Notes under the pieces: model-generated
Told to the model about the DNA's origin: nothing
Database searches by the model: none
What the model saw: only the letters and a program-made list of their open reading frames with translations
Shown: piece by piece, positions 119 to 13,889 of the stretch
Layout: the number at the start of each line of letters is the position of its first letter
Position numbering within the stretch: position 1 is the stretch's first letter
Position numbers and translations under genes: made by a program
DNA from: a virus
Virus record (IMG/VR): IMGVR_UViG_3300045988_181536
Location: 1-64,000 of that record
Direction: 5' to 3' (one strand)
Length of the DNA: 64,000 bases

Positions 119-481
119 ATGAAAATAAATAATTTTCACAAATTTGCTGATTTTATTTCTGCTACAGATCCGATTTATAATTCTTTAGTTAAGCCTAAGG
201 ATTCTGAAATTGAATACGGTAGAGTTCCTGGAGCTATTAAACCTAAGGCGCAATCTTTTACAAAAGACATGGGTTATCAGTTTGGATATAATCCTTTATT
301 TGATTACGGCGCATCAGGTCTACTAGGTGCAGGTATAGGAGGTCTTTTGGGTAATCGCACCGGAGCTGTAATTGGAGGGTTAGGTGGCGTAGCTTTACCT
401 GCGATTTATAAGTATTTGAAAAATAATCCTGACGCATTAGAGAAGTTTACCAGCTTATTTAGTAACAAAGCTCAAGCTTAA
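119..481 (+). CDS. hypothetical protein with N-terminal NNFHKFAD motif and C-terminal glycine-zipper hydrophobic segment
   Basis: Track ORF 77..481. I chose the internal ATG at 119 (MKINNFHKFAD) because the motif then sits at residues 4-11, as in four other proteins here. The C-terminus GLLGAGIGGLLGNRTGAVIGGLGGVAL is a GxxxG-repeat (glycine zipper). Confidence 0.5.
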   Translation: MKINNFHKFADFISATDPIYNSLVKPKDSEIEYGRVPGAIKPKAQSFTKDMGYQFGYNPLFDYGASGLLGAGIGGLLGNRTGAVIGGLGGVALPAIYKYLKNNPDALEKFTSLFSNKAQA

Positions 482-547
482 TGCCCTCTACGCAACCGTC
501 ACCGCCAATCGCTTTGGATAAAGCGAATAAAATAATGAAAGATTAAT

Positions 548-1555
548 ATGTCTAAAGCTTCACAATGGGCATTAGCCGCATCTGGTCTTTTAGGAGGCGG
601 TTATTTGTTAAAAGAATTAGCTTTTAATCGCAAAAAACCTAAAAGCTTAGGCAAGCTTTTGGGAAAATTAGCTTTATACGGAGGTTTAGGTGCGGGTGCA
701 GGTTATTTGTTAAACAAAGGCTTATCTAATTATATTTATAATAGCGTTAAGCTAAATCCATATTCTTATGAGCCGGAGTATATTTTGTCATCTTTACGTC
801 CTACAGGAGATACCTTACGTGAAAAAACTTCAGATATTTGGAAAAAATTAACTACAACTCCTAATTTAGATGATGTTAAAGCAGTACCTCATCCCTCCAA
901 ATATCATCAGTCTGAATCCACTCCTGAAGTAAACGACCAAGGAGTAATTACAGAAACTTATAAGCAGCCGAATCCGAATATAGGTCAAATTTTAGCAAAG
1001 TATAATTTTGATCCTGAAGAAATAGAAAAGGACAAATCTTTGGCTCCTGGAGAAAAAATTGTATTTAAGGAATACACAAATGGTTTGCCTTATAGAAGGG
1101 AATTGTTAGCAAGATATTTAGGTATTTTTGATCCAAGTAAAGGAAGTTTATTTAAAGAAATTCCCTATAAAGAAGCGGAAAAATCCTATGATAAAACGGG
1201 AATTTTAGCTAAGTTACCAATAGTCAATGATACTGTGTTAGTTCCTAAAGATCATGATAAGTTTTTTGGGAGTATGGTAGGATTGGACAACTTAGATAGA
1301 AATGCAGGTAAAACCGTATTTGGTCATGGTGCTTCACGTCCTGCGTTAGCCCATGTATTATTTGGATTTAATCCTTTATCAAATGCTTTAAATATAGGCG
1401 ATGTATGGGATTTTAGAGTAAATGATGCAACTGACATTAAGGATACCAAACGCATCTACGGAAATAAAAGTTATTGGATGCGTAAATTAATTACATCTTT
1501 ATTTGAAGATAAAGCGCCTATAGTTTTAGGCTTGAAACAATATAAAAATTATTAA
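548..1555 (+). CDS. hypothetical glycine-zipper membrane-associated protein
   Basis: 335-aa ORF with AT-rich phage-like codon usage. N-terminal region ALAASGLLGGGYLL...LYGGLGAGAGYLL contains two GxxxG zipper segments. Confidence 0.5.
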   Translation: MSKASQWALAASGLLGGGYLLKELAFNRKKPKSLGKLLGKLALYGGLGAGAGYLLNKGLSNYIYNSVKLNPYSYEPEYILSSLRPTGDTLREKTSDIWKKLTTTPNLDDVKAVPHPSKYHQSESTPEVNDQGVITETYKQPNPNIGQILAKYNFDPEEIEKDKSLAPGEKIVFKEYTNGLPYRRELLARYLGIFDPSKGSLFKEIPYKEAEKSYDKTGILAKLPIVNDTVLVPKDHDKFFGSMVGLDNLDRNAGKTVFGHGASRPALAHVLFGFNPLSNALNIGDVWDFRVNDATDIKDTKRIYGNKSYWMRKLITSLFEDKAPIVLGLKQYKNY

Positions 1556-1573
1556 AATATACTTTTATTATAT

Positions 1574-2257
1574 ATGGCTAAATTAAATAAATATGAATTA
1601 GAGACTTTATTGCCTACCGAAACTTTTTTTCACGGTCCGGTTGCAGACGTATTAACACAGGGTTGGCCAAGGCAAGGCATCAGATCTGCAATAGCGAATG
1701 CTCTTGCGACTTCAGGTGGCAGCAATTTGTCAGACAGCTTTAGCCTACGAAATCCATTAATTTCCTATTTGGGTTCCAGTGGTATTGGTGGACTTATTGG
1801 AGCAGGGCTTGGCTTAGGTGCAGGAAGTTTAATGGATCAAGGTTCAAACGGTGCGCTTCTTGGAGCTCTGTTAGGAACTATTATAGGCGGAGGCGCAAAC
1901 GCGATTCATCGAAGGAAATTGATTAAAAAGATTAAGAAAGAATTAGAGAATAAAGATTTAGACTTTAATAAGATTCCTGATCGTAAAGCAATGGCATTAT
2001 TAAATCCAGTTGGAGCCATGTATAACGCAGATGAGTTAGCAACTAAAGCTTTGTTGAAAAGTAAAGATGATGGTTCTGCGGATGCTCCGGTTAACGAAGG
2101 CACCTATAATATGATGTATGGTAATGTCCCTGCAGCTCAAGCAATAAATCTAGCTGTTAAATCTGCCCCATTTGTTGGATTATTGGCTGATCCTGGATAT
2201 TTAATTGCGCGAATAGCAGGCAGAAGAGGCAAATACCGTAAAGATTTAGAAGATTAA
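1574..2257 (+). CDS. hypothetical glycine-zipper protein
   Basis: 227-aa ORF. GSSGIGGLIGAGLGLGAGSL...GALLGALLGTIIGGGANAI glycine zippers followed by a basic stretch RRKLIKKIKK. Paralogous in character to 548..1555. Confidence 0.5.
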   Translation: MAKLNKYELETLLPTETFFHGPVADVLTQGWPRQGIRSAIANALATSGGSNLSDSFSLRNPLISYLGSSGIGGLIGAGLGLGAGSLMDQGSNGALLGALLGTIIGGGANAIHRRKLIKKIKKELENKDLDFNKIPDRKAMALLNPVGAMYNADELATKALLKSKDDGSADAPVNEGTYNMMYGNVPAAQAINLAVKSAPFVGLLADPGYLIARIAGRRGKYRKDLED

Positions 2258-2284: not shown

Positions 2285-2332
2285 AAAATCTGCAAGACTA
2301 GATTTACTATGGATCAAAATCTTGCAGATTTT
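2285..2332 (+). promoter_or_regulatory. 13-bp perfect inverted repeat (aaaatctgcaaga / tcttgcagatttt) whose 22-nt loop contains the ATG of the 2309 ORF, followed by a T-rich run
   Basis: Read directly: left arm 2285..2297, right arm 2320..2332, ATG at 2309..2311 in the loop, then tctttattt. Confidence 0.45.
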
Positions 2333-2860
2333 TCTTTATTTACAGATACTACTACCGCAGTTAGTATTGCTACTTTAATTGTATTCATCTTAGGCGTAAT
2401 TTATATAAGCTTGCCTTGCGTTTCAAAAGATACGCCTATTTATAAATTGATTAAATATATTTTAACTTTTATATGGAACAATGTGTTTTGTAAAATTGTT
2501 CCAGGGTTAAAACCTTACACGCCTGCTTTGGATAATAAACAATCCTTGGCTGAAGAATCTGGAGATTCTTCTATAAAATCCATTTTGGAAGATAAAGCAT
2601 TTATTCTGGAATTGCAGAAAGTTTATAAAGACGACGTTGCCATAAAAGATTTAATTAAATCTAAAATAAGCAATGTTGTTGCAGAATCTATACAAGTAGT
2701 TAGGGAAAATTACGGAGCTATAGCAAAAAAAGTATCAGTGTATTTTGATATTAAAAAAGAATCTGAAACTTCTGTTTATTTTGACTATGACGAAGGAGTT
2801 TTATTTGACAAAGATTCTTTAGGAACAATAAAAATTAAAAACAATGATTCGAATAAATAA
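2309..2860 (+). CDS. hypothetical membrane protein (one N-terminal TM helix)
   Basis: 183-aa ORF. Hydrophobic AVSIATLIVFILGVIYISL near the N-terminus. Its start codon lies in the loop of the hairpin above. Confidence 0.45.
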   Translation: MDQNLADFSLFTDTTTAVSIATLIVFILGVIYISLPCVSKDTPIYKLIKYILTFIWNNVFCKIVPGLKPYTPALDNKQSLAEESGDSSIKSILEDKAFILELQKVYKDDVAIKDLIKSKISNVVAESIQVVRENYGAIAKKVSVYFDIKKESETSVYFDYDEGVLFDKDSLGTIKIKNNDSNK

Positions 2861-3611
2861 CTTTAGAAAATTTGCATCTGCTGCTTCCAAACCTTATACC
2901 TATGCGGATATGGTCAAGGATTTACAGTCTTATGAAGGATGGGGTAAGCGCAATAACGATGAGATTTATATGGATACAAAGGATACCAAGGACAAACATA
3001 TTCCGACAATGCCTGGGGGCGTTAAACTTTATCCATTTGTAGAACAGTATCTTAGGAAGAATTTAAAATATACCGGAGATTTAAAAGTAGGTTCTAAAAT
3101 TCCAAGAAACATTTCAAGGCAGCTGCAAGAATGGTATTTACAGAATCATGTTGGCGTTCGTAATCTGGAAGGTTTTAATAAGTTGTCTGAAAACGCTAAA
3201 AATCATTTATTGCAGTTAGGCTTTAATGCTAATCTTCCCAATTGGCCCAATTTTAGAGAAGCTCTTGCAGCAGGCAATAAGGCGGAAATAATTAAGCATT
3301 TAAGAGACTCTAATGTTTGGAGAAATGAGCAGGAAAGGTTTCAAAAGGGAGAAAAATTTACGCCGAGATGGACGAATACAATTAACGCTTTAGAAAAGGA
3401 ATTTGGATTAGCTCCAGCAACTGTTGCAGTTACGGACAACGATGCAAATAATAAATTATCCAAGCGTCCGTTACCTAATAAAGGCATCGCCGCAAGTCCT
3501 CAACAACAATCCAAAGAAACAAATAGTTGGGTTCATCCGGAAACAGGGGAAATTTGGACGCCCGAAAAACTGACGAACGCAGTAAAATCTGCTCCAGTAA
3601 TAGAGATATGA
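2844..3611 (+). CDS. putative lysozyme-like protein (T4-lysozyme / GH24-like fold) carrying the N-terminal NNFRKFAS motif
   Basis: MIRINNFRKFAS at residues 4-12. YEGWGKRNNDEIYMDTKD has T4L-like E-x8-D-x5-T catalytic spacing. LSENAKNHLLQLGFNANL and ALAAGNKAEIIKHLRDSNVWRNEQERFQ resemble the T4L C-terminal lobe (NMVFQMG ... AAVNLAKSRWYNQTPNRA). Confidence 0.45.
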   Translation: MIRINNFRKFASAASKPYTYADMVKDLQSYEGWGKRNNDEIYMDTKDTKDKHIPTMPGGVKLYPFVEQYLRKNLKYTGDLKVGSKIPRNISRQLQEWYLQNHVGVRNLEGFNKLSENAKNHLLQLGFNANLPNWPNFREALAAGNKAEIIKHLRDSNVWRNEQERFQKGEKFTPRWTNTINALEKEFGLAPATVAVTDNDANNKLSKRPLPNKGIAASPQQQSKETNSWVHPETGEIWTPEKLTNAVKSAPVIEI

Positions 3612-4630
3612 TTAAAAAAATCATTCCATTAAACATAGAAAATTATGGTTTTAATTTAGATGAGGATGATTATTTTTCATCTATACATGAAAACCATAAT
3701 TTAATTGAGGCAGTAAGAAAATTTTTTAAAGAGGTAGAGGATGAAAACCCTGAATATTGGTGGAATGGGTTGCGCTTAGAAAACTTTAATGGCACTTATG
3801 ATCGAATTTACGCTTTATTTTACAAAGGCACATTAATCGGTTATGTAGGCATAACACCAAGATCAGAAATAACGGAATTGTTGCCGTATGAAAGCATACC
3901 TGGAGAATATATTAGCGTAGCTTTATTAAATAAATATAGAGGTAAAGGTATAGCTAAAAAAATGGTTGCCGAGGCAATTAGCGATTTTGAGTCTGAAAGT
4001 GGTTATGGTAAATTAAAAAATCCAGTGTGGACAGTTCATGAAGATAATAAAAAATCGCAAGCGTTATTTAAATCGTTAACATCAGGAAATGAATACTTGA
4101 AGAATTTAGGCATTAGATTAATAATCAAAGATAAATTTAATAATTTTAAGGATATGTCAAAAGATACGAATGCACCTACCACGGTTGAAGAATTTTTAGA
4201 ATTTGCTAAAACAGCTTTTGTGCCTGCTGAAAAAATGGCTGGCGCCGGAGCTCCACCGCCTCCTGAAGCCATGCCCCCGCAAGGAGGAATGCCGCCCATG
4301 GACCCATCCGCTATGCCTCCTCCAGGAGCTATGCCTCCGGATCCCTCAATGATGGGTGGGGCTATGCCGCCTATGGATCCTGGCATGGGTGGAGCTGCTC
4401 CCCAAGGTGGAGATCCGGTAGCTGAAATAATTCCTATGTTGGAGGAATTTGGATCCACAGTTCAAAAACAGGAACAAGACATTAATGCTATGCGTCAAGA
4501 ATTTGCTGATCTTAAGCAATCTTTTATTGATTTGCAGAATAAGTATTCGCAAATCGCAGGTCAGTATTCTACGATTATAAGCATCATGCAAGGCGGGAAA
4601 CTTCCCGAGGCTCCGAAACTCTCTGTATGA
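3608..4630 (+). CDS. GNAT-like acetyltransferase-fold domain, Met/Pro-rich low-complexity linker and C-terminal coiled coil
   Basis: I chose the start at 3608 (ATGA overlap with the stop of the upstream gene) rather than the track start 3527. ISVALLNKYRGKGIAKKMV fits the GNAT motif A (R-x-x-G-x-G/A after a beta strand). Six MPP(x)DP repeats follow, then a heptad-rich tail. Confidence 0.4.
   Translation: MIKKIIPLNIENYGFNLDEDDYFSSIHENHNLIEAVRKFFKEVEDENPEYWWNGLRLENFNGTYDRIYALFYKGTLIGYVGITPRSEITELLPYESIPGEYISVALLNKYRGKGIAKKMVAEAISDFESESGYGKLKNPVWTVHEDNKKSQALFKSLTSGNEYLKNLGIRLIIKDKFNNFKDMSKDTNAPTTVEEFLEFAKTAFVPAEKMAGAGAPPPPEAMPPQGGMPPMDPSAMPPPGAMPPDPSMMGGAMPPMDPGMGGAAPQGGDPVAEIIPMLEEFGSTVQKQEQDINAMRQEFADLKQSFIDLQNKYSQIAGQYSTIISIMQGGKLPEAPKLSV
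4250..4410 (+). repeat. imperfect tandem coding repeat (atgccNcc units) encoding MPPxDP/MPPQGG low-complexity repeats
   Basis: About six consecutive atgcc(t/g/c)cc units, locally GC-rich. This explains the spurious minus-strand ORFs 4036..4458 and 4346..4591. Confidence 0.5.
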
Positions 4631-4881
4631 TTATTAGATTAAGGTCAGCTTTAGACAGACAAGTTATAGAAGTGCCAAAAGACATTTCTTTTGTGGAGTT
4701 ATGCAATGATGAAGGAAAAGTAATGTCCGTGTTGGTTCAAAATAAACTAACAGGCACTTTAGACATGTTTGATTTTCGTGACGTTGATACAGCGAAGCGT
4801 TACGAGAATTTTTTTAAAGTTGAATTTTTAAAAGATGTACGAGTCTTAGATCCTGAAAAATATTCTGAAGAAAGGAAGTAA
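4627..4881 (+). CDS. hypothetical protein
   Basis: 84-aa ORF whose start overlaps the upstream stop (ATGA), in an operon-like context. Confidence 0.4.
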   Translation: MIIRLRSALDRQVIEVPKDISFVELCNDEGKVMSVLVQNKLTGTLDMFDFRDVDTAKRYENFFKVEFLKDVRVLDPEKYSEERK

Positions 4882-4883
4882 AT

Positions 4884-5156
4884 ATGAGCAGCACATCACC
4901 GGAGGGGGATTCAATATATAATTTAAGATTTAAGGTTACGTTAAATAACGAAGATAAATATTATGACATGACGGTTAACTCTGAAAATCTGTCTAGAAAT
5001 AATATATTAGCCAAGTTTAATTTTAACGAAACTACTGATGCTACCGGAGCACAGGAATCTTATACATTAAAGGATAATACCGGAATAGATAGACAAATGT
5101 ATCTCGTAGTAGATACTATAAATGGAGTGTTAACTCCAAAACTTGAGGTGAAATAA
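4884..5156 (+). CDS. hypothetical protein
   Basis: 90-aa ORF. SD-like aaaggaag lies 6 nt upstream. Confidence 0.4.
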   Translation: MSSTSPEGDSIYNLRFKVTLNNEDKYYDMTVNSENLSRNNILAKFNFNETTDATGAQESYTLKDNTGIDRQMYLVVDTINGVLTPKLEVK

Positions 5157-5158
5157 TA

Positions 5159-5449
5159 ATGTTTAAAAAAGTATTTTCCATATTTTTATTGTTTCTTCTT
5201 ACAGCCTGCTCTTACCAGGTAAAGTTATCATTTAAGGATGATATTGAGAAAATACAAGAACAACAAATAGCTTTATACAGGGATGATTGCATTCAAAATT
5301 TATATTTTGACGCGATAAACAATCCTGATCTGTTAAAAAAATCCGACAAAGAATTAGGAGAATTATATTTTAAGTTCTTTTCCGTTCAAGATCAGATAAT
5401 TTATGTTCAACAGGCAAGGAATTTGGTAAAAAATAAGGACGGAGATTAG
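5159..5449 (+). CDS. lipoprotein (signal peptide with lipobox L-T-A-C)
   Basis: MFKKVFSIFLLFLLTACSYQ is a basic n-region, hydrophobic core and LTAC lipobox. SD gaggtga lies 8 nt upstream. Confidence 0.5.
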   Translation: MFKKVFSIFLLFLLTACSYQVKLSFKDDIEKIQEQQIALYRDDCIQNLYFDAINNPDLLKKSDKELGELYFKFFSVQDQIIYVQQARNLVKNKDGD

Positions 5450-5451
5450 CT

Positions 5452-6414
5452 ATGTCAGGCATAAAAACGTTATTTTCGTGGGTTAAAAATAAGTTTAAAA
5501 AGAATCGTAGAAGTGAATCTACGCCTTCTGAGAAGTTAACTGCTTTATTTAAATCAAAATCAGGTTCTTCAAAATTATTGGGTTGTAAACCCGACCTACC
5601 TGATGAGCGTGACCATATCAAACTTGGATCATCTATTTATCAAAATACCGTAGATAGCGTTAAGGATTTTTCTTTAAAAAAGTATGCGCCGCCTGTGCAA
5701 AATCAAAAAAATACATCGGCATGCGGGGGTTTTGCAGCATCTGCGGCTGTTTTTATTTTGCGCAATAAAATGTTAAATATGGTGCAGCCTGGTAATTCGG
5801 ATAAAGATGTAACTGGGAATTTTTTACTCTCACCTTTATATATTTATTATAATGCAAGGTTTGTAGACTTTTTATTTGATGATAAATTTTACGGCAAGGT
5901 TAGTTCTCCGCTTCCGGATTGCGGAGTTACACTTAGAAGCTTAATGAAAGCTTTAAAAAAATACGGTGTAGTTCCGGAAATCGTAATGCCATTTTATAAG
6001 TTTACACCGGATAGCAATCCGCCTGGAGCTATTGATCCTGCAAAGAATTTTAAAATAAAAGAATATTTAAGGATTTCAATGGAAGCTGATCCGGAAGAAA
6101 TCTGTAAAAATGTGTTGGTTGCTGAGCATCTTCCTATTATTGCAGGTTTATATCTTTATAAGGAACAAATGGATAATTTGGATTACTATGGATATTTGGA
6201 ACCTTGTAAGGATATCAAAGATGCTGAATTAATTGGAGGGCATGCGGTTTGTATTACCGGATTTAAACAAAAGAACGGTCAAACCTATTTTGAATTTTTG
6301 AATAGTTGGGGTACATCAACAGGGGATTTTGGATATGGTTATTTTCCTGCTTCGTTTTTGTCGGATAAAAATTATGTAATGGACCTTTGGACCTTTGATA
6401 AAAGTTATTTCTAA
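5452..6414 (+). CDS. papain-family (C1A) cysteine peptidase
   Basis: VQNQKNTSACGGFAASAAVF matches the papain VKNQGSCGSCWAFSAV block, with the oxyanion Gln and the nucleophile Cys at nt 5722..5724. IGGHAVCITGF matches the DHAVAAVGY His block (His at nt 6241..6243). LNSWGTSTGDFGYGYF matches the NSWGTGWGENGY Asn block. SD ggacggag lies upstream. Confidence 0.75.
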   Translation: MSGIKTLFSWVKNKFKKNRRSESTPSEKLTALFKSKSGSSKLLGCKPDLPDERDHIKLGSSIYQNTVDSVKDFSLKKYAPPVQNQKNTSACGGFAASAAVFILRNKMLNMVQPGNSDKDVTGNFLLSPLYIYYNARFVDFLFDDKFYGKVSSPLPDCGVTLRSLMKALKKYGVVPEIVMPFYKFTPDSNPPGAIDPAKNFKIKEYLRISMEADPEEICKNVLVAEHLPIIAGLYLYKEQMDNLDYYGYLEPCKDIKDAELIGGHAVCITGFKQKNGQTYFEFLNSWGTSTGDFGYGYFPASFLSDKNYVMDLWTFDKSYF

Positions 6415-6620
6415 TGCAGATAATTATAGCATCCATTTTAAAAATTATTGAATATATTGCTTCTATTTTTGCTAATAGAGCAAAAGATAACGCTTTAACA
6501 GACAATGAGTTGGCTAAGAAGATCAACCGAGAGTCAGATAAGCATAATGAATTAATAAACAAATCTTTAAAAGGGGATAAAAAAGCTCTCGATGAAATAC
6601 GCAAGAATATTTCTATTTAG
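6414..6620 (+). CDS. small protein with hydrophobic N-terminus and coiled-coil tail (i-spanin-like or holin-like candidate)
   Basis: 68 aa. MQIIIASILKIIEYIASIFA is hydrophobic; heptad-like ELAKKINRESDKHNELINKSLKGDKKALDEIRK follows. Start overlaps the upstream stop (ATGCAGA). Confidence 0.35.
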   Translation: MQIIIASILKIIEYIASIFANRAKDNALTDNELAKKINRESDKHNELINKSLKGDKKALDEIRKNISI

Positions 6621-6960
6621 CATATGCATAGTTGTAGCAGGATGTATGTCTACGACTAATAAGACTCCTGACATTATAGAACGAGATGTAATATCTTATG
6701 ACGAATATGGTGATCAGACAGGGGGTTTAATAGATATTGAAGAAGGAAAATATTTTATAATTACTAAAAAAACAGTTGATTTATATAACGCTTTAGTAGA
6801 TAAATACGGTGATAAAATTGTGCCGCCTTTAAAGAAAAACGAAGGCATCACAAAATGTGAAAATGGAAATAATTATAAAATTTCGCCAAAATACATGAAA
6901 TATTTTATGGATATGGCGGATGCCTACCGTATGGAACTTAACAGAAAGGATAATTTATAA
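6592..6960 (+). CDS. lipoprotein (lipobox V-A-G-C), o-spanin-like candidate overlapping the upstream gene
   Basis: MKYARIFLFSICIVVAGCMSTT is a signal peptide plus lipobox. The 5' end overlaps 6414..6620 by 29 nt in another frame, as in Rz/Rz1-type arrangements. It is larger than a typical o-spanin and not Pro-rich. Confidence 0.4.
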   Translation: MKYARIFLFSICIVVAGCMSTTNKTPDIIERDVISYDEYGDQTGGLIDIEEGKYFIITKKTVDLYNALVDKYGDKIVPPLKKNEGITKCENGNNYKISPKYMKYFMDMADAYRMELNRKDNL

Positions 6961-7212
6961 ATGACGGAAGATCAAAAAGATAAACTTTATGCTTCTAAAG
7001 GAATCACAATTCCCGCTGGAATGTCTGCATTTGGACCAAGCACGGAAGAATGGATGCAAATGAGTGGAATAGGAACTTTATTTCACAATTTTGTAAATCC
7101 TTCAAATGCAAAATCCGAAGAAGCAAATAAAGTAGTGGAAGAGAGAACTGTGAATAATACGGATAATCCTAAACGTAAATTTTTGTTTAATGTAAGACTA
7201 TCTAAAAGTTAG
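6961..7212 (+). CDS. hypothetical protein
   Basis: 83-aa ORF starting 1 nt after the upstream stop. Confidence 0.4.
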   Translation: MTEDQKDKLYASKGITIPAGMSAFGPSTEEWMQMSGIGTLFHNFVNPSNAKSEEANKVVEERTVNNTDNPKRKFLFNVRLSKS

Positions 7213-7221
7213 TTATCGACA

Positions 7222-7246
7222 AGCACACATAAAGTGTGCTAATTTT
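7222..7246 (+). terminator. weak hairpin (agcacac ataaa gtgtgct) followed by aatttt
   Basis: 7-bp stem read directly, located after the 6961..7212 stop. Confidence 0.3.
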
Positions 7247-7254
7247 AAATAATA

Positions 7255-7755
7255 ATGAATCGCCCTGTAGAAATATCAACATCTCCTACGGAATCATTGC
7301 TTAATCACGGAGATGTATTTGAAACCGAGGATCAAATTGCTTTAAAACTTTCTTCAATTGAAGAATTAACTATACCTTCATTTGAAGTCAGTTCTGAGGC
7401 TGAGACAATGATGGAACAAATGGACGATTTAACTCCTAGAGATAGATATGTTTTAACCACCCTGGATCTAATGCGTCAAAAGATGGATTGGATGATTCCC
7501 AGATTAAAAAACATATCTCGAGAAGTTAGGAAAACAAATGGCACATGCATCCAGTTAAAAACTTGGAAGCACAGTGTGGAAAATGATATAGATGAAACTA
7601 TTAAATTTTCCAAAAAACATAAAGCTGATATGGCTAAAGAAGATGCCTTAAAATCCTTTTTTAAAAATACAGCTATATTTTTAATTGGTATTTTAGGCGG
7701 TATTGGAGGTACAATTACAATTGCTTCAGAATTTTTTAGTTTGATCAAGAATTGA
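7255..7755 (+). CDS. hypothetical protein with C-terminal glycine-zipper TM segment
   Basis: 166 aa. The C-terminus is AIFLIGILGGIGGTITIASEFFSL. Confidence 0.45.
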   Translation: MNRPVEISTSPTESLLNHGDVFETEDQIALKLSSIEELTIPSFEVSSEAETMMEQMDDLTPRDRYVLTTLDLMRQKMDWMIPRLKNISREVRKTNGTCIQLKTWKHSVENDIDETIKFSKKHKADMAKEDALKSFFKNTAIFLIGILGGIGGTITIASEFFSLIKN

Positions 7756-7756
7756 T

Positions 7757-8086
7757 ATGTCTTCAAGCGGATCTACAACAACTTTAGCATCCTGTCAAAA
7801 TGACAGGATAGTTTATCCTTCGGGATATATTAAGTCATCTGCGTCTGCGGATGGTCAAATGACATTATCCACAGATGGCAATGGCAACCCGTTAACCAAT
7901 ATTGAACTGTCAGCAACTAACTCAATTAGTTTAAATGGACCTGTAAAGGTGATAAAGATGAATGTGTTTAATTCAAATAAACAAATTGTTGCTAATACAT
8001 TTGTGTATTTAATTTTTGAACAAACAGATGGACTAATTACACCATCTTATTTAACTCAAGAAGAATGGGACGCGTATAATGCATAA
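7757..8086 (+). CDS. hypothetical protein
   Basis: 109-aa ORF adjacent to its neighbours, Ser/Thr-rich. Confidence 0.4.
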   Translation: MSSSGSTTTLASCQNDRIVYPSGYIKSSASADGQMTLSTDGNGNPLTNIELSATNSISLNGPVKVIKMNVFNSNKQIVANTFVYLIFEQTDGLITPSYLTQEEWDAYNA

Positions 8087-8660
8087 ATTTTTATTTGGAT
8101 TATTGATTTCAGGTCTTGCAGCTCTGGCATTATGTGCCACTACTAAGCCTGTAACTTATGACTCGAATACAGGCGTAGTTAATACACCTGCAAATTTTTC
8201 CACGGCTAATAATTTGCCTACATTCTCAAATGTGCAAATATATTCCGGTCCAATGGATGAGTTTACGGACATGGAAATAAAAGTTCTATCCCCGAGTGGC
8301 ACGGAATTGTATTTTTTTACTACAGTAAATTTTAATAGTTCTTGGGTAAAAAATAATAACCCTGCAATTTGTGATACGACTGCAGTGTGCTATTATTTTC
8401 GGTCTGGTCCAGGTGTGACTTGTGCGCATGTTAAAACGAAGTTTTCCAATTTAAATTCTTCCATTGCAAACCAAATATCTTCAAATTTGCGTATTGGAGG
8501 AATTGTCGTGCAGCCGTCTGCTGCCTTTTTATCTGTGTTTAACAACCCTAATAACACAGTTGTAATCTGGAGAATAGGCAGGAGCGGTGCAGATGTAGAT
8601 ACATACGGGGGCAAGATATGGCGTCCCGCTGTGGTACAATTTTTTAAACCTTTAAATTAA
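8079..8660 (+). CDS. secreted protein (signal peptide, ALA|L cleavage or lipoprotein-like)
   Basis: MHKFLFGLLISGLAALALCATT N-terminal signal peptide. Cys-containing, beta-rich body. Confidence 0.45.
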   Translation: MHKFLFGLLISGLAALALCATTKPVTYDSNTGVVNTPANFSTANNLPTFSNVQIYSGPMDEFTDMEIKVLSPSGTELYFFTTVNFNSSWVKNNNPAICDTTAVCYYFRSGPGVTCAHVKTKFSNLNSSIANQISSNLRIGGIVVQPSAAFLSVFNNPNNTVVIWRIGRSGADVDTYGGKIWRPAVVQFFKPLN

Positions 8661-8661
8661 A

Positions 8662-8955
8662 ATGCGAAAACTAAATTTATTTTTAACTATAATTGGAATG
8701 CTTTTTGCTTCCAGTGTAATGGCAGATGACGATAATGATTTAAATATTTGCCAAGATTACTTGGATACTTTAAATCTTTTGACAGAAATAAAAACATTTC
8801 AGTTGCAGCAAGAAATGTCTTTATTTTCTTTAAATACTGCAGTTTCAGCTTACCCGTTTACTCCGGTGTGGTATAAATGGAAAGAATATTATACTGCTGA
8901 AAATAAGATTGAAAAATTTAATATTTTAAAAGAAATTAACAACCTTACTAAATAA
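8662..8955 (+). CDS. secreted protein (signal peptide VMA|DDD)
   Basis: MRKLNLFLTIIGMLFASSVMADDD. Confidence 0.45.
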   Translation: MRKLNLFLTIIGMLFASSVMADDDNDLNICQDYLDTLNLLTEIKTFQLQQEMSLFSLNTAVSAYPFTPVWYKWKEYYTAENKIEKFNILKEINNLTK

Positions 8956-8957
8956 TT

Positions 8958-9698
8958 ATGATAAATAAAATTCTTATCTCTTGTATTGCGGCATGTGCTG
9001 CTTTAATCATTCCTGGCGTTGTAAATGCCAAGAATCTATCCGAGCTGTCTGCTGAGTTTGGAGCTATACATGCAAAAGGAGTGGAGGCAAATAATTATGC
9101 TTATATTAAAGCTAATTTAAAAGATTGTATTGCTGCTTTTGATGAGTGGAAAGTTTCAGAAGAGGCAAAGGGTGTATCATATCCTGAAGCAACTACGAAA
9201 CTTTTTAGCTATTTAATTACTATTGACGACGGTAAGAATTGTCCTGTCTCTGCTTCGCCAGAGATTTTCACGAAATTAAGCGTTTGGAACTTAAAGGAAG
9301 TAACCGAGGTAGAAAATCCCACATTTTATCAAGAGTTAAAATCCAATGATTATAAAATTAATGGCGTTAAATTAAATGATAATCAAATAGTTAATGCTAC
9401 AATACGCTTTAGGGATTGGGACACTTTCAAGTCTATGCTCAATACTGATGCAGGACAAGCTGCTTTAAAATATGATAGATTTACACGTGCCGCATATGTT
9501 AATGCATTAATAACAAAATGGATGACCCTCTCTACAGCTTCAGACATCAGCAAAGCAATATCTGACTGCGCAGAACTGCAAGGCACTTTTGTAATTCTGG
9601 GAGTACAAACGAATGATGAAGCATTTGGCAAGCTTACGCAAATATCCCAGATTCTTTCCCGCAAACTTTTAGCTGCTCAAGCCGGAAATCTAAAATAA
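8958..9698 (+). CDS. secreted protein (signal peptide VNA|KN)
   Basis: MINKILISCIAACAALIIPGVVNAKNL; 246 aa. Confidence 0.45.
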   Translation: MINKILISCIAACAALIIPGVVNAKNLSELSAEFGAIHAKGVEANNYAYIKANLKDCIAAFDEWKVSEEAKGVSYPEATTKLFSYLITIDDGKNCPVSASPEIFTKLSVWNLKEVTEVENPTFYQELKSNDYKINGVKLNDNQIVNATIRFRDWDTFKSMLNTDAGQAALKYDRFTRAAYVNALITKWMTLSTASDISKAISDCAELQGTFVILGVQTNDEAFGKLTQISQILSRKLLAAQAGNLK

Positions 9699-9737
9699 GG
9701 CATAGCAGATAAAGACAAAATCCTAAACTTAGATAAA

Positions 9738-9768
9738 AACCTGCGGTTATCCGCAGGTTTTTATCTTT
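9738..9768 (+). terminator. rho-independent terminator (aacctgcgg ttat ccgcaggtt + tttatcttt)
   Basis: 9-bp GC-containing perfect stem, 4-nt loop and T-run, read directly. It closes the 1-9.7 kb gene block. Confidence 0.6.
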
Positions 9769-10446: not shown

Positions 10447-12723
10447 GTGAAGGCAATTCAATATCTTATTAACTCCGTATTACCTGAGGATATTAGGGAC
10501 TACACTCGTACATATGACGCCAAGTCTATGAACGAGTTGCAGTCTGCTATAGCTGAAAAATATCCGGAACGTTATAGGGAATTAATGGATAAAATTATGG
10601 ATATTGCGCGTAAGTCTGTTTATTACTCGGGACAGACTTTGCGGCTTTCCGATTTTAAACCTCCGTTTGATAAAGATGTGGCATTAGAAGAAATGCACAA
10701 CGAGGTGCAGTATCTTCGTGACAATATTAAAGACGAAGAAAAAAAGAACAAAGCTATAATGGACGTATATGAAAGGTATGCTACAAAATTGGAAAAGGAT
10801 ACCTTAAATGCGGCTAAAACAAATCGCAATAATTTATACAATTCCGTATCTTCAGGCGCCAGAGGTTCTCCGTTCCAGTTAAAAGCTTTGATAACAACTC
10901 CGGCTTTGTACACTGATTATAAAGGCAGAACAATTCCTTATTTTGTTAAGCATAGTTTTGGAGAAGGTTTATCTATTCCTGAATATTTGGCGAGTACATA
11001 TGGAACACGCGCAGCAACAATTGCCATAAAAAAGAGTACAGCAAAGTTTGGCGGCTGGGGTAAAAGTTTATTTCGCCCGGTATCCAATATGATGATAACC
11101 TCAAAAAAAGATACGTCAAACAACGGTATTGATTTAGATATTGATGACGCATCTTTATATGGCAGAGTATTGGCGCGTCCGGTTGCCGGATATGCTGAAG
11201 GCACAATTGTTGACAGGGATGTATTAAATTCTTTAAAAAGCAAGGGCGTAAAAACTGTTATTGTTCATTCCCCTATTGCTACAGTATCTGCAGAGGGTAT
11301 TTCAGCTGAAGCTTTTGGACTAGATTACAATAAACGTTTGCCAAAGGTTGGAGATTTTCACGCAGGTATTACTGCTGCTACAGCAACTAGTGAACCTGCC
11401 ATTCAAGGTGGTTTGTGTCTACATTACACAACTGAAATTATGTTATGGGATGGAACAAAAAAACAAATTCGAGATATTGTTCCGGGACGTGACATTGTTA
11501 AAAGCTTAGATACAAATGGCAATATAATTGCAGCTAAAGTGCTTAATAAATTTAAGCAAGGTTGCAGGAACGTTTATGAAGTTATATTTGAACACAACGA
11601 TATTGCGTATTCTGTTATTTGTACTCGTAACCATAAATTTAAAATTTATGGGGAAATGTTAGATCTACCTGTAAAAGAAATTTATAAAAAATCTTTATGT
11701 TTTGATGTTCTTGGAGATCCTGCACGTATTCTTGATATAAGATTCTTGGGTAATAGGGTGTGTTTTGACATAGAAGTTGATAGTCCGACACATTTGTTTG
11801 TTTTAGCAAACGGTCTTATATCTCATAATTCGTCTAAGCATGAAGCTGGTGGATTTAAAGGAAAGAAGCGCACATTCTCCGGATTTGATTATATCAATCA
11901 ATTTTTTGAATCTCCTGAGCAGTATAAATCGAAAGCTCCGCTTGCAGAATCAGACGGTAGGGTAGAAAAAATATATGAAGCCCCACAAGGGGGACATTAT
12001 ATTGTTGTAAATGGTGTAGAACACTATGTTGATCCGGATTCTAATATTGAAGTACAAGAAGGTCAAGAGGTTGAACAAGGAGATCAGTTGGCGGATGGAC
12101 TCGTAGATTTAGGAGATGTATTGCGTTTGAGAGGTCTTGGGGAAGGTAGAAAGGCATTTGTAAACATAGGCAAACAGTTATTAGATGACAGTAATGCCAC
12201 CGCACATAAGCGTAATTTAGAGGTGTTGGCCCGAGGCATTGTAGATAAAGTAGAGATTACGGATCCTGATGGCGTGGGAGATTATTTGCCTGGGGATATT
12301 GTATCTTATAATGCATTGGAAGCTTCTTATAAACCCGATAAGGATTCAAAAGAAATAAATATATCCTCTAAAAATAAAGATTTAAAAGGCAAATACTTAC
12401 AGAAACCAGTATTGCATTATACTATCGGTACCAAGTTAACCAATAAAATGATTGATCACATCAGAAATACCGGCATAACGGATTCTGTTCTTGTATCGGA
12501 TAATGAACCTGGATTTACGCCAATTTATGTGAGATTAAGAGAAGCTCCAAACAAGGGTAATAGAAATTTCTTAGAAAGGGCAACAGCCCCTTATCAGGCA
12601 AAGAATTATGTTGAGTCAGCAGTCAGAGGTTATAAAACTAATATCAAAAGTAATTTAGACCCGTTTGTTAGAATGTCCATGCCTGATTTTGCCGAAAACA
12701 CTGATATAACAGGAAGATTTTAA
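10447..12723 (+). CDS. multisubunit RNA polymerase beta-prime subunit, C-terminal fragment (split rpoC-like), interrupted by a mini-intein in the trigger loop
   Basis: GTG start 15 nt after the upstream stop. [81 protein letters not shown] matches the bacterial beta-prime block [82 protein letters not shown][intein]SKHEAGG matches the trigger loop [32 protein letters not shown] matches DILRLRGV. There is no NADFDGD motif, so the N-terminal half must be encoded elsewhere. Confidence 0.8.
   Translation: [758 protein letters not shown]
11416..11829 (+). mobile_element. mini-intein (138 aa, Hint domain only, no homing endonuclease) in the RNAP beta-prime trigger loop
   Basis: Begins with Cys ([13 protein letters not shown], block A). 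It has TRNH (block B T-x-x-H) and ends ...[12 protein letters not shown] followed by Ser as the +1 extein residue. Removing it restores a contiguous trigger-loop sequence. Confidence 0.7.
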
Positions 12724-12725
12724 TT

Positions 12726-13889
12726 ATGTTAATTACGAAAAACTTTCAAAAATTTGCTTCAAATATTGCAGTAAAAAACAGTTCTTTTAAGTTTGCTAAC
12801 TTTAAGAAGTTTGCTTCAAATCCCCAAGTTGCTTCAGAAGTTCGTCAAGGTGTTCGTGACGAATATGGAAAATCTTTTAATGATAATAATCAGTGGACAG
12901 ATTTCAGGCTGGATATGAATAGAGGCACAATGGCCCAGGTAAGGAGATTAGGGGCTTACGCCAAAGGAGCAATTATGGGGCCAACTAACATCCAAAGACA
13001 ACGGAATAACATCCAAGCACAACAGCAACAGTTGAAGCCTCAAAACAACACTACAAATAATAATACCAACAATAATAAACAGGAAAAAGGTTGGTTTGGC
13101 AAACTTTGGGATAAAAGTAAGAATTTTGTTAAAGGTATGCATGAAAGCGGCATGCAAGAAGCGGGTAACTATACCAAAGCCGTAGTTGATAGTGATTTGG
13201 GTTCATTGGATCAAGTTTCTCGAGGTTTGTCAGATCGAGCCGGAGCTGAAGCGGTTAAAGCTCAACAAATCGCAAGAAGTTATATAGCACAAGGAAAACC
13301 GATTCCCAAAGATGTTGCGGATCGCATGGCTAAGGCTCGTGCTTACGATTCTGCTGCAGGTCAAGTGATGAAATCTACATCTTACACTTCACAAGATTTA
13401 GAGAAGAATATGCGTAACGAATTAGAGAGGTATCAAAATGATGTAGAAGAAAATATGTATAACTCTCGAAACACACAGGCGCGTGTATCTCAAACTTTAG
13501 AAGATAAAGCGTATAATGATTTTAAAAATCTTAGTGGATGGGATAAAGTTAAAGTCATATTCCAAAAATTTTTATCAGGTATGGGAGTAAAAATCCCTAA
13601 AGATTGGGCATATAACAATTTTATAAATCGTCAAAGAAATGAGGCGCAAGATTACATAAGAAATAAAAGTAATCTTGGTAATCAAATGTTGGGAGAATAT
13701 GCTGCTGCTTCACAATATGACTTAAATGATCCTCGTCAACGTGCTGAATTTTATCAAATAAACTCTCAACGGATGGATCAACTAAATAATCGTTATAAAA
13801 ATGTTAAAGTAAATCCCGAGGTATCAGCTTACATAGCGCAACAACAAGCAAAACGCAACCCTGTAAATTCTAATGCTCAAGCGGTTTAA
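12726..13889 (+). CDS. hypothetical virion-type protein with three tandem N-terminal NFxKFAS/N motifs and a Q/N-rich low-complexity region
   Basis: MLITKNFQKFASNIAVKNSSFKFANFKKFASNPQ, then NIQRQRNNIQAQQQQLKPQNNTTNNNTNNNKQ. 387 aa. Start is 2 nt after the rpoC-like stop. Confidence 0.5.
   Translation: MLITKNFQKFASNIAVKNSSFKFANFKKFASNPQVASEVRQGVRDEYGKSFNDNNQWTDFRLDMNRGTMAQVRRLGAYAKGAIMGPTNIQRQRNNIQAQQQQLKPQNNTTNNNTNNNKQEKGWFGKLWDKSKNFVKGMHESGMQEAGNYTKAVVDSDLGSLDQVSRGLSDRAGAEAVKAQQIARSYIAQGKPIPKDVADRMAKARAYDSAAGQVMKSTSYTSQDLEKNMRNELERYQNDVEENMYNSRNTQARVSQTLEDKAYNDFKNLSGWDKVKVIFQKFLSGMGVKIPKDWAYNNFINRQRNEAQDYIRNKSNLGNQMLGEYAAASQYDLNDPRQRAEFYQINSQRMDQLNNRYKNVKVNPEVSAYIAQQQAKRNPVNSNAQAV

Follow-up and report, generated by a model that had tools for sequence, protein, structure and literature searches.

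A xylellain-type papain-family peptidase paired with an upstream lipoprotein gene in gut phages, and its possible role at the host envelope

What use does a phage make of a papain-family peptidase whose gene lies among genes for lipoproteins and a small membrane protein? We addressed this question in the first 64,000 nt of the IMG/VR virus record IMGVR_UViG_3300045988_181536 (hereafter, the window). A sequence-only reading of the locus had seen there an enzyme rare in phages, set in an arrangement resembling a lysis cassette. The peptidase could then be an unconventional endolysin beside an i-spanin/o-spanin-like gene pair or, alternatively, the protease that matures proteins carrying an NFxKFAS tag. 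The features on which our argument draws are collected in Table 1.

Table 1. Features of the peptidase locus and of the head-maturation protease candidate in the window
Feature	Position	Strand	Remarks
Gap-free string of ten genes	2309-7212	+	Intergenic gaps ≤3 nt; presumed late operon
Tagged lysozyme-like protein	2844-3611	+	Gene string member
GNAT + Pro/Met-rich coiled coil	3608-4630	+	Gene string member
Lipoprotein-1, 96 aa	5159-5449	+	Small, fast-evolving; the peptidase's conserved upstream partner
Lipoprotein-1 lipobox L-T-A-C, Cys17	5207-5209	+	Read from sequence
Peptidase ORF, 320 aa	5452-6414	+	Xylellain-type C1A (papain-family) cysteine peptidase, no signal peptide
N-terminal extension of the peptidase, ~residues 1-43	5452-5580	+	Not in bacterial homologues
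Gln85 codon	5704-5706	+	Catalytic residue
Cys91 codon	5722-5724	+	Catalytic residue
His264 codon	6241-6243	+	Catalytic residue; GGH264AV at 6235-6249
Asn284 codon	6301-6303	+	Catalytic residue; N284-S-W-G at 6301-6312
Trp286 codon	6307-6309	+	Catalytic-set residue
Small bitopic membrane protein, 68 aa	6414-6620	+	N-terminal TM segment, then 48 charged helical residues
Lipoprotein-2, 122 aa	6592-6960	+	Lipobox V-A-G-C; overlaps the 6414 gene by 29 nt
Lipoprotein-2 lipobox Cys18	6643-6645	+	Read from sequence
Conserved 83-aa protein	6961-7212	+	Last of the gap-free string; orthologues in L004, L005, L093, L094
Candidate canonical head-maturation protease, 545 aa	20400-22037	+	Outside the peptidase cluster

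The ORF read as a peptidase is a bona fide C1A papain-family enzyme of the xylellain type. It matches Pfam PF00112 (Peptidase_C1) at 31.8 bits (E=2e-7), above the gathering cut-off of 20.7 bits, and the same domain is present in 23 of its 23 database homologues. Its best sequence match in the PDB is xylellain from Xylella fastidiosa (3OIS; phmmer, E=2.2e-13). The AlphaFold (AF2) model is confident (pLDDT 86.4, pTM 0.84), and a Foldseek search of the PDB with this model again placed 3OIS first (E=1.9e-18, TM 0.78), with Der p 1 and procathepsins K and B next, in keeping with a two-lobe papain fold. The codons of the catalytic set were verified and stand in papain order (Gln-x5-Cys, His, Asn-x-Trp). 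Q85, C91 and H264 are invariant across 22 homologues, and N284 and W286 are kept in at least 90% of them. The papain architecture, the conservation expected of a catalytic Cys, His and Asn, and the four plus-strand ORFs of the sequence-only reading are all confirmed, and this cysteine endopeptidase is probably catalytically active.

Like xylellain, the phage enzyme has a single catalytic domain (Pfam found no other in the ORF, and no I29 prodomain), lacks a signal peptide, carries the same Gln/Cys/His/Asn/Trp set and has a short N-terminal region ahead of a conserved G-[W/C]-x-P-D...RD start. However, identity to xylellain is about 25%, the Trp of the 'YGWKPD' motif is replaced in the phage clade by Cys, Leu or Ile, and the clade adds a cationic amphipathic helix and a lipoprotein gene that is always upstream. 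The Trp replacement, the helix and the upstream lipoprotein gene have not been described for xylellain-type enzymes. The amphipathic helix (IKTLFSWVKNKFKK; hydrophobic moment 0.55, net charge +9) is followed by a second helix within the N-terminal extension. AF2 models the two at residues 3-18 and 25-35 with lower confidence, and comparable amphipathic helices occur in 10 of 13 phage-clade homologues. In Foldseek, the peptidase model aligns with C1A zymogens over about 290-320 columns. We infer a membrane-binding and/or pro-region role for the extension: the phage-specific N-terminal 45-70 residues would combine the amphipathic helix with a pro-region-like segment and might hold the enzyme latent and close to the membrane, much as xylellain's own N-terminal pro-region does. 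No signal peptide was found in the polar, basic N-terminus, and the peptidase is therefore made in the cytoplasm. A possible internal lipobox ('KLLGC', residues 41-45) was considered and rejected, in that no hydrophobic segment precedes it, homologues have Trp, Leu, Ile or Tyr in place of its Cys, and in P0005 just 8 residues precede the equivalent position.

The supposed rarity of such enzymes in phages did not hold. One single-pattern scan of IMG/VR yielded 400 confirmed viral loci with relatives of the peptidase, including giant-virus bins and 200-600-kb phages, and BFVD contains many Caudovirales C1 models. Xylellain-type C1A genes, of the 'short bacterial' kind, have already been reported in Myoviridae and Siphoviridae (Caudoviricetes), and viruses acquired them horizontally and repeatedly, with no role assigned (Kordis & Turk 2023, PMC10380794). 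The relatives at the 400 loci are signal-less and occupy varied contexts, often of nucleotide metabolism; distant viral C1A homologues adjoin CTP synthase and ribonucleotide reductase, a deaminase-like protein, or a DNA methylase, and exported neighbors were seen in 3 cases, not above the 8% background. Given these unrelated contexts and the lack of an exported-neighbor excess, the family as a whole has no obligatory link to the envelope. A search of GTDB genomes for the host gave one 2-kb Bacteroidales MAG contig only (29% identity), hits in the phage collection include Lak/Prevotella phages, and a DNA-level search of that collection found no annotated relatives of the cluster. The Bacteroidales and Lak/Prevotella matches give a weak hint as to the host.

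These observations could point to a purely cytoplasmic accessory protease that breaks down or processes proteins of the host or the phage, serving for example host takeover, anti-defense or amino-acid scavenging, as may be the case for the xylellain-type peptidases of many large DNA viruses. Such a role would fit the missing signal peptide, the signal-less relatives in varied contexts, the lack of enrichment of exported neighbors beyond this clade, and the repeated viral acquisition of these genes with no assigned role (PMC10380794). The adjacent lipoprotein gene would then reflect the shared ancestry of a mobile gene pair with no joint function at the envelope. Yet a cytoplasmic role leaves unexplained both the cationic amphipathic helix and the strict retention of lipoprotein-1 through divergence and relocation described below, and we consider it possible but doubtful.

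Lipoprotein-1 begins MFKKVFSIFLLFLLTAC, is predicted to be mostly helical and carries the conserved motifs Q..YF and, at its C terminus, L...N.DG[DE]. It has no family match in Pfam, PHROG or NCBIfam and resembles no known inhibitor family in Pfam. A sensitive search recovered only three homologues, all near-identical, and orthologues were identified by synteny. They lie immediately 5' of the peptidase gene in L001, L004, L005, L006, L091-L094 and L007-L012, and the spacing is 2-8 nt in the window and in L001, L004, L005, L006 and L091-L094. Across these spaced loci, identity falls to 38-41% for the peptidase and to about 20% for lipoprotein-1, with the lipobox Cys invariant, and the adjacency is retained in 9 of 9 diverged relatives with an uninterrupted upstream flank. 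In L006 the pair is flanked by a portal-like gene and by a conserved gene for a 300-aa protein, whereas in L001 it follows the 300-aa gene; from these different positions it follows that the two genes move as a unit. The pair has thus stayed together while the sequences diverged by about 60% and the genes relocated at least twice. The peptidase gene is translationally coupled to the lipoprotein-1 gene directly upstream. Fusion of the two products by frameshift or read-through was rejected because the frame relationship varies among loci.

We asked whether this pair belongs to a larger cassette. The gap-free string encodes, in order, a TM protein, the tagged lysozyme-like protein, the GNAT and coiled-coil protein, an 84-aa and a 90-aa protein, lipoprotein-1, the peptidase, the small TM protein, lipoprotein-2 and the 83-aa protein, the last of which has no match in Pfam, PHROG or NCBIfam. 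A terminator-like hairpin was located at 7222-7240, with a second, strong hairpin at 9731-9766; a scan for sigma-70 promoters showed no excess over shuffles. The cluster is embedded in a block of structural (head and ejection-protein) genes with no recognized lysis gene alongside. The same order of genes, overlap included, is found in relatives with peptidases only 49-66% identical. Given this recurrence, and catalytic residues that vary little or not at all across 22 homologues, the arrangement goes beyond chance. Even so, the proposed four-gene lysis cassette resolves into two independent two-gene units, lipoprotein-1 with the peptidase and the TM protein with lipoprotein-2. The adjacent TM-then-lipoprotein-2 pair is kept in L004, L005, L093, L094, L104 and L105 and the gene overlap in L004, L005, L093, L094 and L104, and L104 and L105 encode both proteins with neither the peptidase nor lipoprotein-1 nearby. 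In L001 and L006 neither gene adjoins the peptidase; L001 has the TM protein elsewhere, with no lipoprotein 3' of its gene.

The neighbors had been correctly read as lipobox lipoproteins (LTAC, VAGC) and a small membrane protein with a TM segment, and the i-spanin/o-spanin comparison is sound as far as geometry goes: the overlap is real, conserved and self-contained, and, as in lambda Rz/Rz1, the gene for an N-anchored membrane protein is overlapped by a lipoprotein gene in another frame. The products, in contrast, differ from spanins. The small membrane protein ends in LDEIRK. In every orthologue, no positive charge precedes the TM segment and basic residues (NRAK, KRK, KNKS) flank it on the C-terminal side; the positive-inside rule, a heuristic, therefore predicts a cytoplasmic coil (C-in). 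This topology is opposite to that of Rz, and the protein is far shorter, with 48 extramembrane residues where a type II i-spanin has a long periplasmic coil. The o-spanin expected is short, Pro-rich and unstructured, whereas mature lipoprotein-2 is large and Pro-poor (105 residues, 4 Pro, 3.8%), and its conserved motifs (TN.TPD, ISYDEYG) and 27 invariant columns suggest a folded domain. No spanin, holin or endolysin family was detected in the cluster with Pfam, PHROG or NCBIfam, nor was a recognized holin or endolysin found among the window ORFs tested. The spanin reading fits the gene geometry and the lipobox only; topology, size, composition and homology do not.

Nor is the peptidase a peptidoglycan endolysin in any demonstrable sense. 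C1A is its sole domain, and we found no peptidoglycan-cleaving catalytic domain, cell-wall-binding module or SAR signal in it and no peptidoglycan-binding domain in eight scanned homologues, the longest included. A literature search for a C1 endolysin returned nothing relevant. No C1A peptidase is known to act on peptidoglycan or to have a part in lysis. The idea of a lysis cassette, with the peptidase as unconventional endolysin and the downstream genes as a spanin pair, can draw on the conserved two-gene overlap, on the lipobox of lipoprotein-2, and on the overlap of the peptidase stop with the ATG of a small, holin-like membrane protein gene (TAATG). It can also draw on C1-like-fold phage proteins in BFVD, putative fusions whose UniProt names refer to peptidoglycan-binding or muramidase domains. 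With the predicted cytoplasmic coil, the character of lipoprotein-2, the lack of family matches and wall-binding domains, and the L001 and L006 peptidases that stand apart from the downstream module all against it, we judge this explanation improbable.

An envelope-directed or lysis-associated role nevertheless remains our leading guess, and the functional part of this proposal is drawn from gene context only. Tentatively, we favor a signal-less, probably latent peptidase that would attack the envelope when infection is well advanced and would have lipoprotein-1 for its periplasmic partner. Once the inner membrane is permeabilized, the peptidase would enter the periplasm and could cut protein components of the envelope, and lipoprotein-1 might serve as a docking factor or as a compartment-specific inhibitor or immunity protein of the kind found beside clan-CA proteases. 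In favor of this proposal are the conserved partnership, the amphipathic helix in most members of the clade, and a neighborhood rich in membrane and exported proteins: within 4 kb are two lipoproteins, the small TM protein, a tail-anchored protein and three signal-peptide proteins. The same gene string also encodes a lysozyme-like protein, which aligns with the N-terminal domain of the L091 LysM-GNAT protein (E=3e-13), and L003 has a lysozyme-LysM-GNAT protein and a C92 amidase 2-3 kb from its peptidase. Against the proposal, enzyme and lipoprotein-1 occupy different predicted compartments until the membrane is breached, the cluster lies in a structural block in which holin, endolysin and spanin families went undetected, the distant viral homologues sit in unrelated contexts with exported neighbors at background, and lipoprotein-1 matches no known inhibitor family.

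Bacterial protease/inhibitor pairs offer the closest precedent for the partnership. Genes for clan-CA proteases share transcripts with those of small inhibitors dedicated to them, and in Bacteroides some of the inhibitors are predicted to be lipoproteins; in the Bacteroides fragilis Bfp-Bfi system these are Bfi1B and Bfi4, and one bfp gene lies on a prophage (PMC2873492). As in staphopain-staphostatin, SpeB-Spi and Bfp-Bfi, the phage locus couples a papain-fold protease gene tightly, and in the same orientation, to a small partner ORF, and Bfp-Bfi shares with it the possibility of a lipoprotein partner and an association with mobile elements or phages of gut bacteria. However, the phage enzyme belongs to C1A, not to C10 or C47, and its partner is encoded upstream, is predicted to be mostly helical and shows no homology to an inhibitor family. 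The phage protease also lacks an export signal, so the partner is in another compartment. An enzyme and a partner held in separate compartments resemble type VI amidase effectors and their periplasmic immunity proteins.

The same neighborhood could instead serve superinfection exclusion or envelope remodeling. The lipoproteins and small membrane proteins would then alter the envelope of the infected cell so that further phages are kept out, and the peptidase would process a membrane protein of the host on its cytoplasmic side. The region 5159-9698 is dense in exported and membrane proteins, exclusion by phage lipoproteins has classic examples in T5 Llp and Cor, and through its amphipathic helix the peptidase could be kept at the inner leaflet, next to the tail of the small membrane protein that is predicted to be cytoplasmic. 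Exclusion genes, however, are usually expressed early or in lysogeny and not from within a late structural gene string, and searches of Pfam, PHROG and NCBIfam gave no homology to known exclusion proteins. We think this explanation quite improbable.

The position of the peptidase in a structural block raises the other possibility put forward by the sequence-only reading, that it is the protease, or a second protease, by which head and ejection proteins lose their N-terminal NFxKFAS tags or K-Φ-A-S propeptides. The window encodes a better candidate. The head-maturation protease candidate of Table 1 has an N-terminal protease domain of roughly 220 aa and a long C-terminal extension, and its putative catalytic residues lie in the conserved motifs LFREH (His101) and LSSSMG (Ser150-152). 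By tblastn it matches Salmonella phage Arash gp222 (6e-18), Vibrio phage D181 (7e-16) and Gordonia phage Stormageddon gp13, a 'capsid maturation protease' (E=9e-3), and its homologues match phrog_18299, 'head maturation protease' (E=5e-7 to 1e-20). The identification is solely transitive, through homologues in Arash and in Vibrio, Gordonia and Mycobacterium phages: no window ORF matched a prohead protease directly in Pfam, PHROGs, NCBIfam or the PDB, and the AF2 model of the protease domain was poor (pLDDT 50) and its Foldseek search uninformative.

The distribution of the cleavage motif agrees with this assignment. In head-side proteins, K-Φ-A-[S/A/D] was counted 20 times where 3.5 copies were expected. 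Among these proteins are the capsid protein, where it (as TIKMAS) precedes the mature part, and the protease candidate, which carries four copies, with two located in the C-terminal extension. The C1 peptidase has neither a K-Φ-A-[SAD] motif nor a tag, and the ORFs of 3608-9698 contain no copy of the motif. Arash, too, has the protease homologue and is enriched in the motif (9 versus 2.3 expected), and our search of the phage collection that includes Arash found no C1 relative there; by that search, C1 relatives and the motif do not co-occur in Arash. T4 gp21 and phiKZ gp175 offer the parallel for the window's canonical enzyme, in which a motif is repeated in the head proteins and in the protease itself, and the C1 peptidase, in contrast, is unrelated to them in fold and motif-free. 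The T4 (L/I-x-E) and phiKZ (S/A/G-x-E) cleavage motifs differ from K-Φ-A-[S/A/D]. We conclude that the NFxKFAS 'tags' belong to a prohead-protease system and that the canonical protease most likely removes the K-Φ-A-S tags, whereas the C1 peptidase probably does not.

Some evidence does favor the C1 peptidase as a tag-removing enzyme. Its gene lies within the structural block and, in L006, directly after the portal-like gene and before head genes; its gene string encodes tagged proteins; and papain-family S2 pockets prefer Phe or Leu at P2, which fits cleavage at K-F-A|S. A prohead protease gene is expected between the portal and major capsid genes; in the window, the peptidase gene precedes the portal-like gene by about 8 kb. 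Against this stand the canonical protease homologue, with motifs of its own as in self-processing prohead proteases, the motif ahead of the mature capsid protein, the Arash comparison, the motif-free C1 peptidase itself, and a papain rather than an assemblin fold, the prohead homologue being a different ORF. A literature search found no papain-fold prohead protease in any phage, and we hold a head-maturation role for the C1 peptidase to be very improbable.

Separating the peptidase from the tag system clarifies head maturation in these phages, which would employ a protease of the canonical kind that cuts at a new consensus. For the peptidase itself, an unlikely extension of our favored envelope-directed reading is that enzyme and periplasmic lipoprotein form an undescribed phage enzyme/partner system acting on proteins of the diderm envelope. 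In one version, the protease may cut the tethers between outer membrane and wall at lysis, with lipoprotein-1 as its dock, and may be the proteinaceous equivalent of LysB in mycobacteriophages, or of spanins. In another, lipoprotein-1 may be a periplasmic immunity protein, comparable to T4 spackle or to the immunity partner of a type VI effector. If the role is cytoplasmic, the peptidase is an ordinary accessory gene. This clade, with a peptidase locked to a lipoprotein and a membrane-seeking N-terminal helix, provides a handle on function, and it points to an envelope-directed function that can be tested in a group of gut phages that encode an RNA polymerase and measure roughly 175 kb. If that role is true, it would add a class of protease to the envelope-disruption or immunity functions of phages.

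The sequence-only reading had described a papain-family peptidase within an arrangement of lipoprotein, peptidase, transmembrane (TM) protein and overlapping lipoprotein, and we recovered all four ORFs exactly as it gave them (see the table of features). The peptidase matches Peptidase_C1 in Pfam at 31.8 bits, against a curated threshold of 20.7, and its closest solved relative by sequence is xylellain (3OIS; E=2.2e-13). Gln85, Cys91 and His264 are invariant in 22 homologues, while Asn284 and Trp286 are kept in at least 90% of them, with the codons confirmed. A confident AlphaFold2 model built on the 22-homologue alignment (pLDDT 86, pTM 0.84) retrieved xylellain as the top Foldseek match (E=1.9e-18, TM 0.78), with Der p 1 and procathepsins K and B ranking next. 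The catalytic set of the enzyme is complete. It carries no export signal, and its N-terminal extension is specific to its clade: the first helix is strongly amphipathic and basic in 10 of 13 clade members (moment 0.5-0.7, net charge +5 to +10), and the remainder aligns structurally with zymogen pro-regions in Foldseek. The Peptidase_C92 of the related locus L003 has an N-terminus (MFKKIFTFCLDLYKNWYSYW) that resembles this amphipathic helix.

Such peptidases had been thought rare in phages, a view that does not survive database comparison. One degenerate-pattern scan of IMG/VR yielded 400 confirmed loci, including giant-virus bins and phage contigs of up to 600 kb, and most of these relatives are signal-less proteins of ~250 aa that start with YGW[RK]PDLPDHRD. 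BFVD holds numerous C1 models from Caudovirales, PHROGs contains a "peptidase" family that matches the window peptidase, and short xylellain-type C1A peptidases were gained independently by Mimiviridae and by Myoviridae and Siphoviridae (Kordis & Turk, PMC10380794). As for the host, the distant peptidase relatives give hints only through Prevotella Lak phages and a single Bacteroidales MAG contig. The C1 homologue of phage Lak-B5 appears as a truncated ORF under table 11, in keeping with reports that Lak phages use an alternative genetic code, and its neighbors include no envelope genes.

Our comparison of the peptidase locus covers nine diverged relatives, in which peptidase identity ranges between 66% and 38%. 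Wherever the upstream flank is intact (L001, L004, L005, L006, L091, L092, L093 and L094, plus the near-identical L007-L012), a lipoprotein of 90-105 aa is encoded 2-8 nt upstream of the peptidase. Orthologues of this lipoprotein-1 share ~20-50% identity, and their constant features are the lipobox Cys, Q..YF and a C-terminal L...N.DG[DE]. Only L003 departs from this gene order, having an IS605-type TnpB gene directly upstream of the peptidase. Inserted genes of this Cas12f-like type occur in both L003 and L106, and the L003 copy occupies the place expected for lipoprotein-1. In L006 the lipoprotein-1/peptidase pair is flanked by a portal-like gene of 825 aa and a conserved gene of 300 aa, and in L001 it stands immediately 3' of the latter; because these places differ, we conclude that the pair relocates as one unit. 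Lipoprotein-1 is a strictly conserved, translationally coupled partner of the peptidase.

Both flanking lipoproteins have the canonical n-region, h-region and lipobox (LTAC and VAGC), and the lipobox Cys is invariant in all orthologues. The proposed overlap between the 3' end of the TM gene and the lipoprotein-2 gene is also present and measures 29 nt, and the TM gene start overlaps the peptidase stop (TAATG). The four genes do not, however, form a single cassette. Only the closer relatives (L004, L005 and L092-L094) have the TM protein and lipoprotein-2 behind the peptidase. The TM protein of L001 is encoded 800 nt from the peptidase with no lipoprotein behind it, and L104 and L105 retain the TM/lipoprotein-2 pair and its overlap with neither peptidase nor lipoprotein-1 nearby, beside an SprT-like gene in L104 and beside a portal-like gene and terminase in L105. 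Since each two-gene unit occurs apart from the other (L001, L006, L104 and L105), the arrangement consists of two independent units set side by side.

The geometry of the TM/lipoprotein-2 genes and the lipobox do resemble spanins, although topology, size, composition and homology speak against this identity. The TM protein has one hydrophobic segment, at its N-terminus, and 48 charged residues outside the membrane, very short for spanning the periplasm. Across its orthologues, positive charge is absent ahead of the segment and a basic flank always comes after it; by the positive-inside rule the charged helix would therefore be cytoplasmic, the reverse of an i-spanin. Lipoprotein-2, with 105 mature residues, 3.8% Pro and 27 invariant columns, differs from the short, Pro-rich o-spanins, and neither protein matched a PHROG or NCBIfam family. 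As a small protein with one TM segment and a charged C-terminal tail, the TM protein fits a loose, non-diagnostic description of a holin. Nor does the peptidase look like an endolysin: C1A is its sole domain, with no wall-binding module or SAR-like segment, and peptidoglycan-binding domains are absent from the eight homologues scanned, the longest ones included. Two BFVD matches have UniProt names that mention peptidoglycan-binding or muramidase domains, by name only. To our knowledge, C1A enzymes have no documented peptidoglycan activity, and our literature search found nothing on the subject. We consider it unlikely that the locus as a whole is a lysis cassette with spanins.

The peptidase gene belongs to a ten-gene, gap-free string that ends at a terminator-like hairpin and also encodes a tagged, lysozyme-like protein. 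This protein is homologous to the N-terminal domain of the L091 LysM-GNAT protein (E=3e-13) and aligns weakly with the L003 lysozyme-LysM-GNAT protein (E=0.013), and it had no match itself in Pfam or PDB. Since it bears the N-terminal tag, this protein probably travels in the head and is ejected at entry as a peptidoglycan hydrolase, rather than serving as an endolysin. The next gene of the window, like its L005 counterpart, joins a GNAT acetyltransferase and a Pro/Met-rich coiled coil (MPPMDPSM repeats) in one protein; other relatives encode the two parts in separate, adjacent genes. Where the parts meet, the motif K-x-A-F-[VI]-[PA]-[AS] is conserved and may represent a variant protease site.

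Could the peptidase instead mature the tagged proteins, as had been suggested? Head-side proteins contain 20 copies of the motif K-[FMLIAV]-A-[SAD] where 3.5 are expected (about 6-fold; 0/500 shuffles reach 20), and with a slightly narrower pattern the tail half has 4 where 2.8 are expected. Small Gly-zipper proteins carry the motif at their very N-terminus, the major capsid protein has it at residue 36 (TIKMAS), and it is also present in scaffold-like proteins and the portal-like protein; ORFs 3608-9698, peptidase included, have zero copies. A better candidate protease has four motif copies and a long C-terminal extension. Its N-terminal domain is related to gp222 of Salmonella phage Arash (E=6e-18), a Vibrio phage protein (7e-16) and gp13 of Gordonia phage Stormageddon (9e-3), annotated as a capsid maturation protease, and these homologues match phrog_18299 "head maturation protease" (E=5e-7 to 1e-20). 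Arash gp222 is a virion protein (PMC10585845). The Arash head module is likewise enriched (9 motifs against 2.3 expected; 0/500 shuffles), and no C1 relative turned up in Arash when we searched the phage collection. On these homologies, the Arash enrichment and the outcome of that search, the tags most probably belong to a conventional prohead-protease system, whose cleavage consensus, K-[FMLIAV]-A-[S/A/D], is apparently new. Papain prefers Phe at P2, which is compatible with K-F-A-S cut between A and S but adds little, and we regard tag removal by the peptidase as very improbable.

Coordinates of features in the window and in related loci
Locus	Coordinates	Feature
Window	119-2257	three proteins with glycine-zipper, membrane-like segments, possibly ejected channel-forming head proteins; first has N-terminal NNFHKFAD tag
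Window	119-481; 12726-13889; 14360-16783; 22120-23649	motif-bearing ORFs
Window	1574-2257	weak Gly-zipper 2TM match (Pfam)
Window	2309-7212	ten-gene string
Window	2844-3611	lysozyme-like protein, 255 aa, motif-bearing
Window	3608-4630	GNAT/coiled-coil fusion
Window	5159-5449	lipoprotein-1
Window	5452-6414	peptidase, 320 aa
Window	6414-6620	TM protein, 68 aa
Window	6592-6960	lipoprotein-2
Window	7255-9698	envelope-type run: 166-aa tail-anchored protein (kept in relatives), then signal-peptide proteins 8079, 8662, 8958
Window	9731-9766	strong terminator-like hairpin, 16-bp stem
Window	10447-12723	RNA polymerase beta'-like fragment
Window	20400-22037	candidate head-maturation protease
Window	25218-26249	major head (capsid) protein
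Window	28574-30103	tail sheath
Window	47046-47987	possible sigma-like factor, 313 aa
L003	6705-7958	TnpB
L003	11156-11776	Peptidase_C92 (permuted papain-like amidase), adjoining lysozyme-LysM-GNAT gene
L003	11780-13309	lysozyme-LysM-GNAT protein (Pfam-recognised)
L004	6138-7092	separate GNAT and coiled-coil genes
L005	13151-15427	compare window 10447-12723
L091	1729-3297	LysM-GNAT protein
L092	3830-4751	separate GNAT and coiled-coil genes
L093	207-1213	separate GNAT and coiled-coil genes
L097 (Lak-B5)	2687-3031	C1 homologue
L106	1-3090	compare window 10447-12723
L106	5806-7005	TnpB

All 59 sizeable genes of the window lie on the + strand, at a G+C of ~35%. Given weak but consistent PHROG matches for the head and sheath proteins, weak Rpb1 domain 4/5 matches, a large RNA polymerase beta/beta'-like protein encoded just upstream on a near-identical 174-kb contig, and relatives borne on contigs of 164-175 kb, we read the window as the structural part of a myovirus genome of ~175 kb, with a multisubunit RNA polymerase of its own encoded among the structural genes. 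The beta'-like fragment also has a Hint (intein-like) signal. The head genes show distant kinship to Arash. Between the tail and baseplate genes, one product gives HTH signals and a near-threshold Sigma-70 region 3 match (23.8 vs 25.3 bits), and Arash has an annotated virion sigma factor. The hairpin closing the envelope-type run lies in the region's only sizeable intergenic gap.

When a clan-CA protease is closely coupled to a small dedicated ORF, the two are usually an enzyme/inhibitor or enzyme/adaptor pair, as in staphopain-staphostatin, SpeB-Spi and Bacteroides Bfp-Bfi, where some Bfi are predicted lipoproteins (PMC2873492). The window pair differs from these in that the partner is exported and the enzyme lacks an export signal. 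The simplest reading of this asymmetry, which we offer tentatively, is that the peptidase would gain the envelope compartment once the membrane is permeabilised and act there, with lipoprotein-1 serving as its dock or as an inhibitor/immunity protein. A purely cytoplasmic role, which we rate as only slightly less likely, would agree with the varied contexts of distant viral homologues, whose exported neighbors are no commoner than background; a role in superinfection exclusion seems improbable. The peptidase adds a member to a family that was already on record from phages. While they do not by themselves fix a function, its obligatory lipoprotein partner, its amphipathic N-terminal extension and the TM/lipoprotein pair as an independent mobile module are, as far as the searched literature shows, new.
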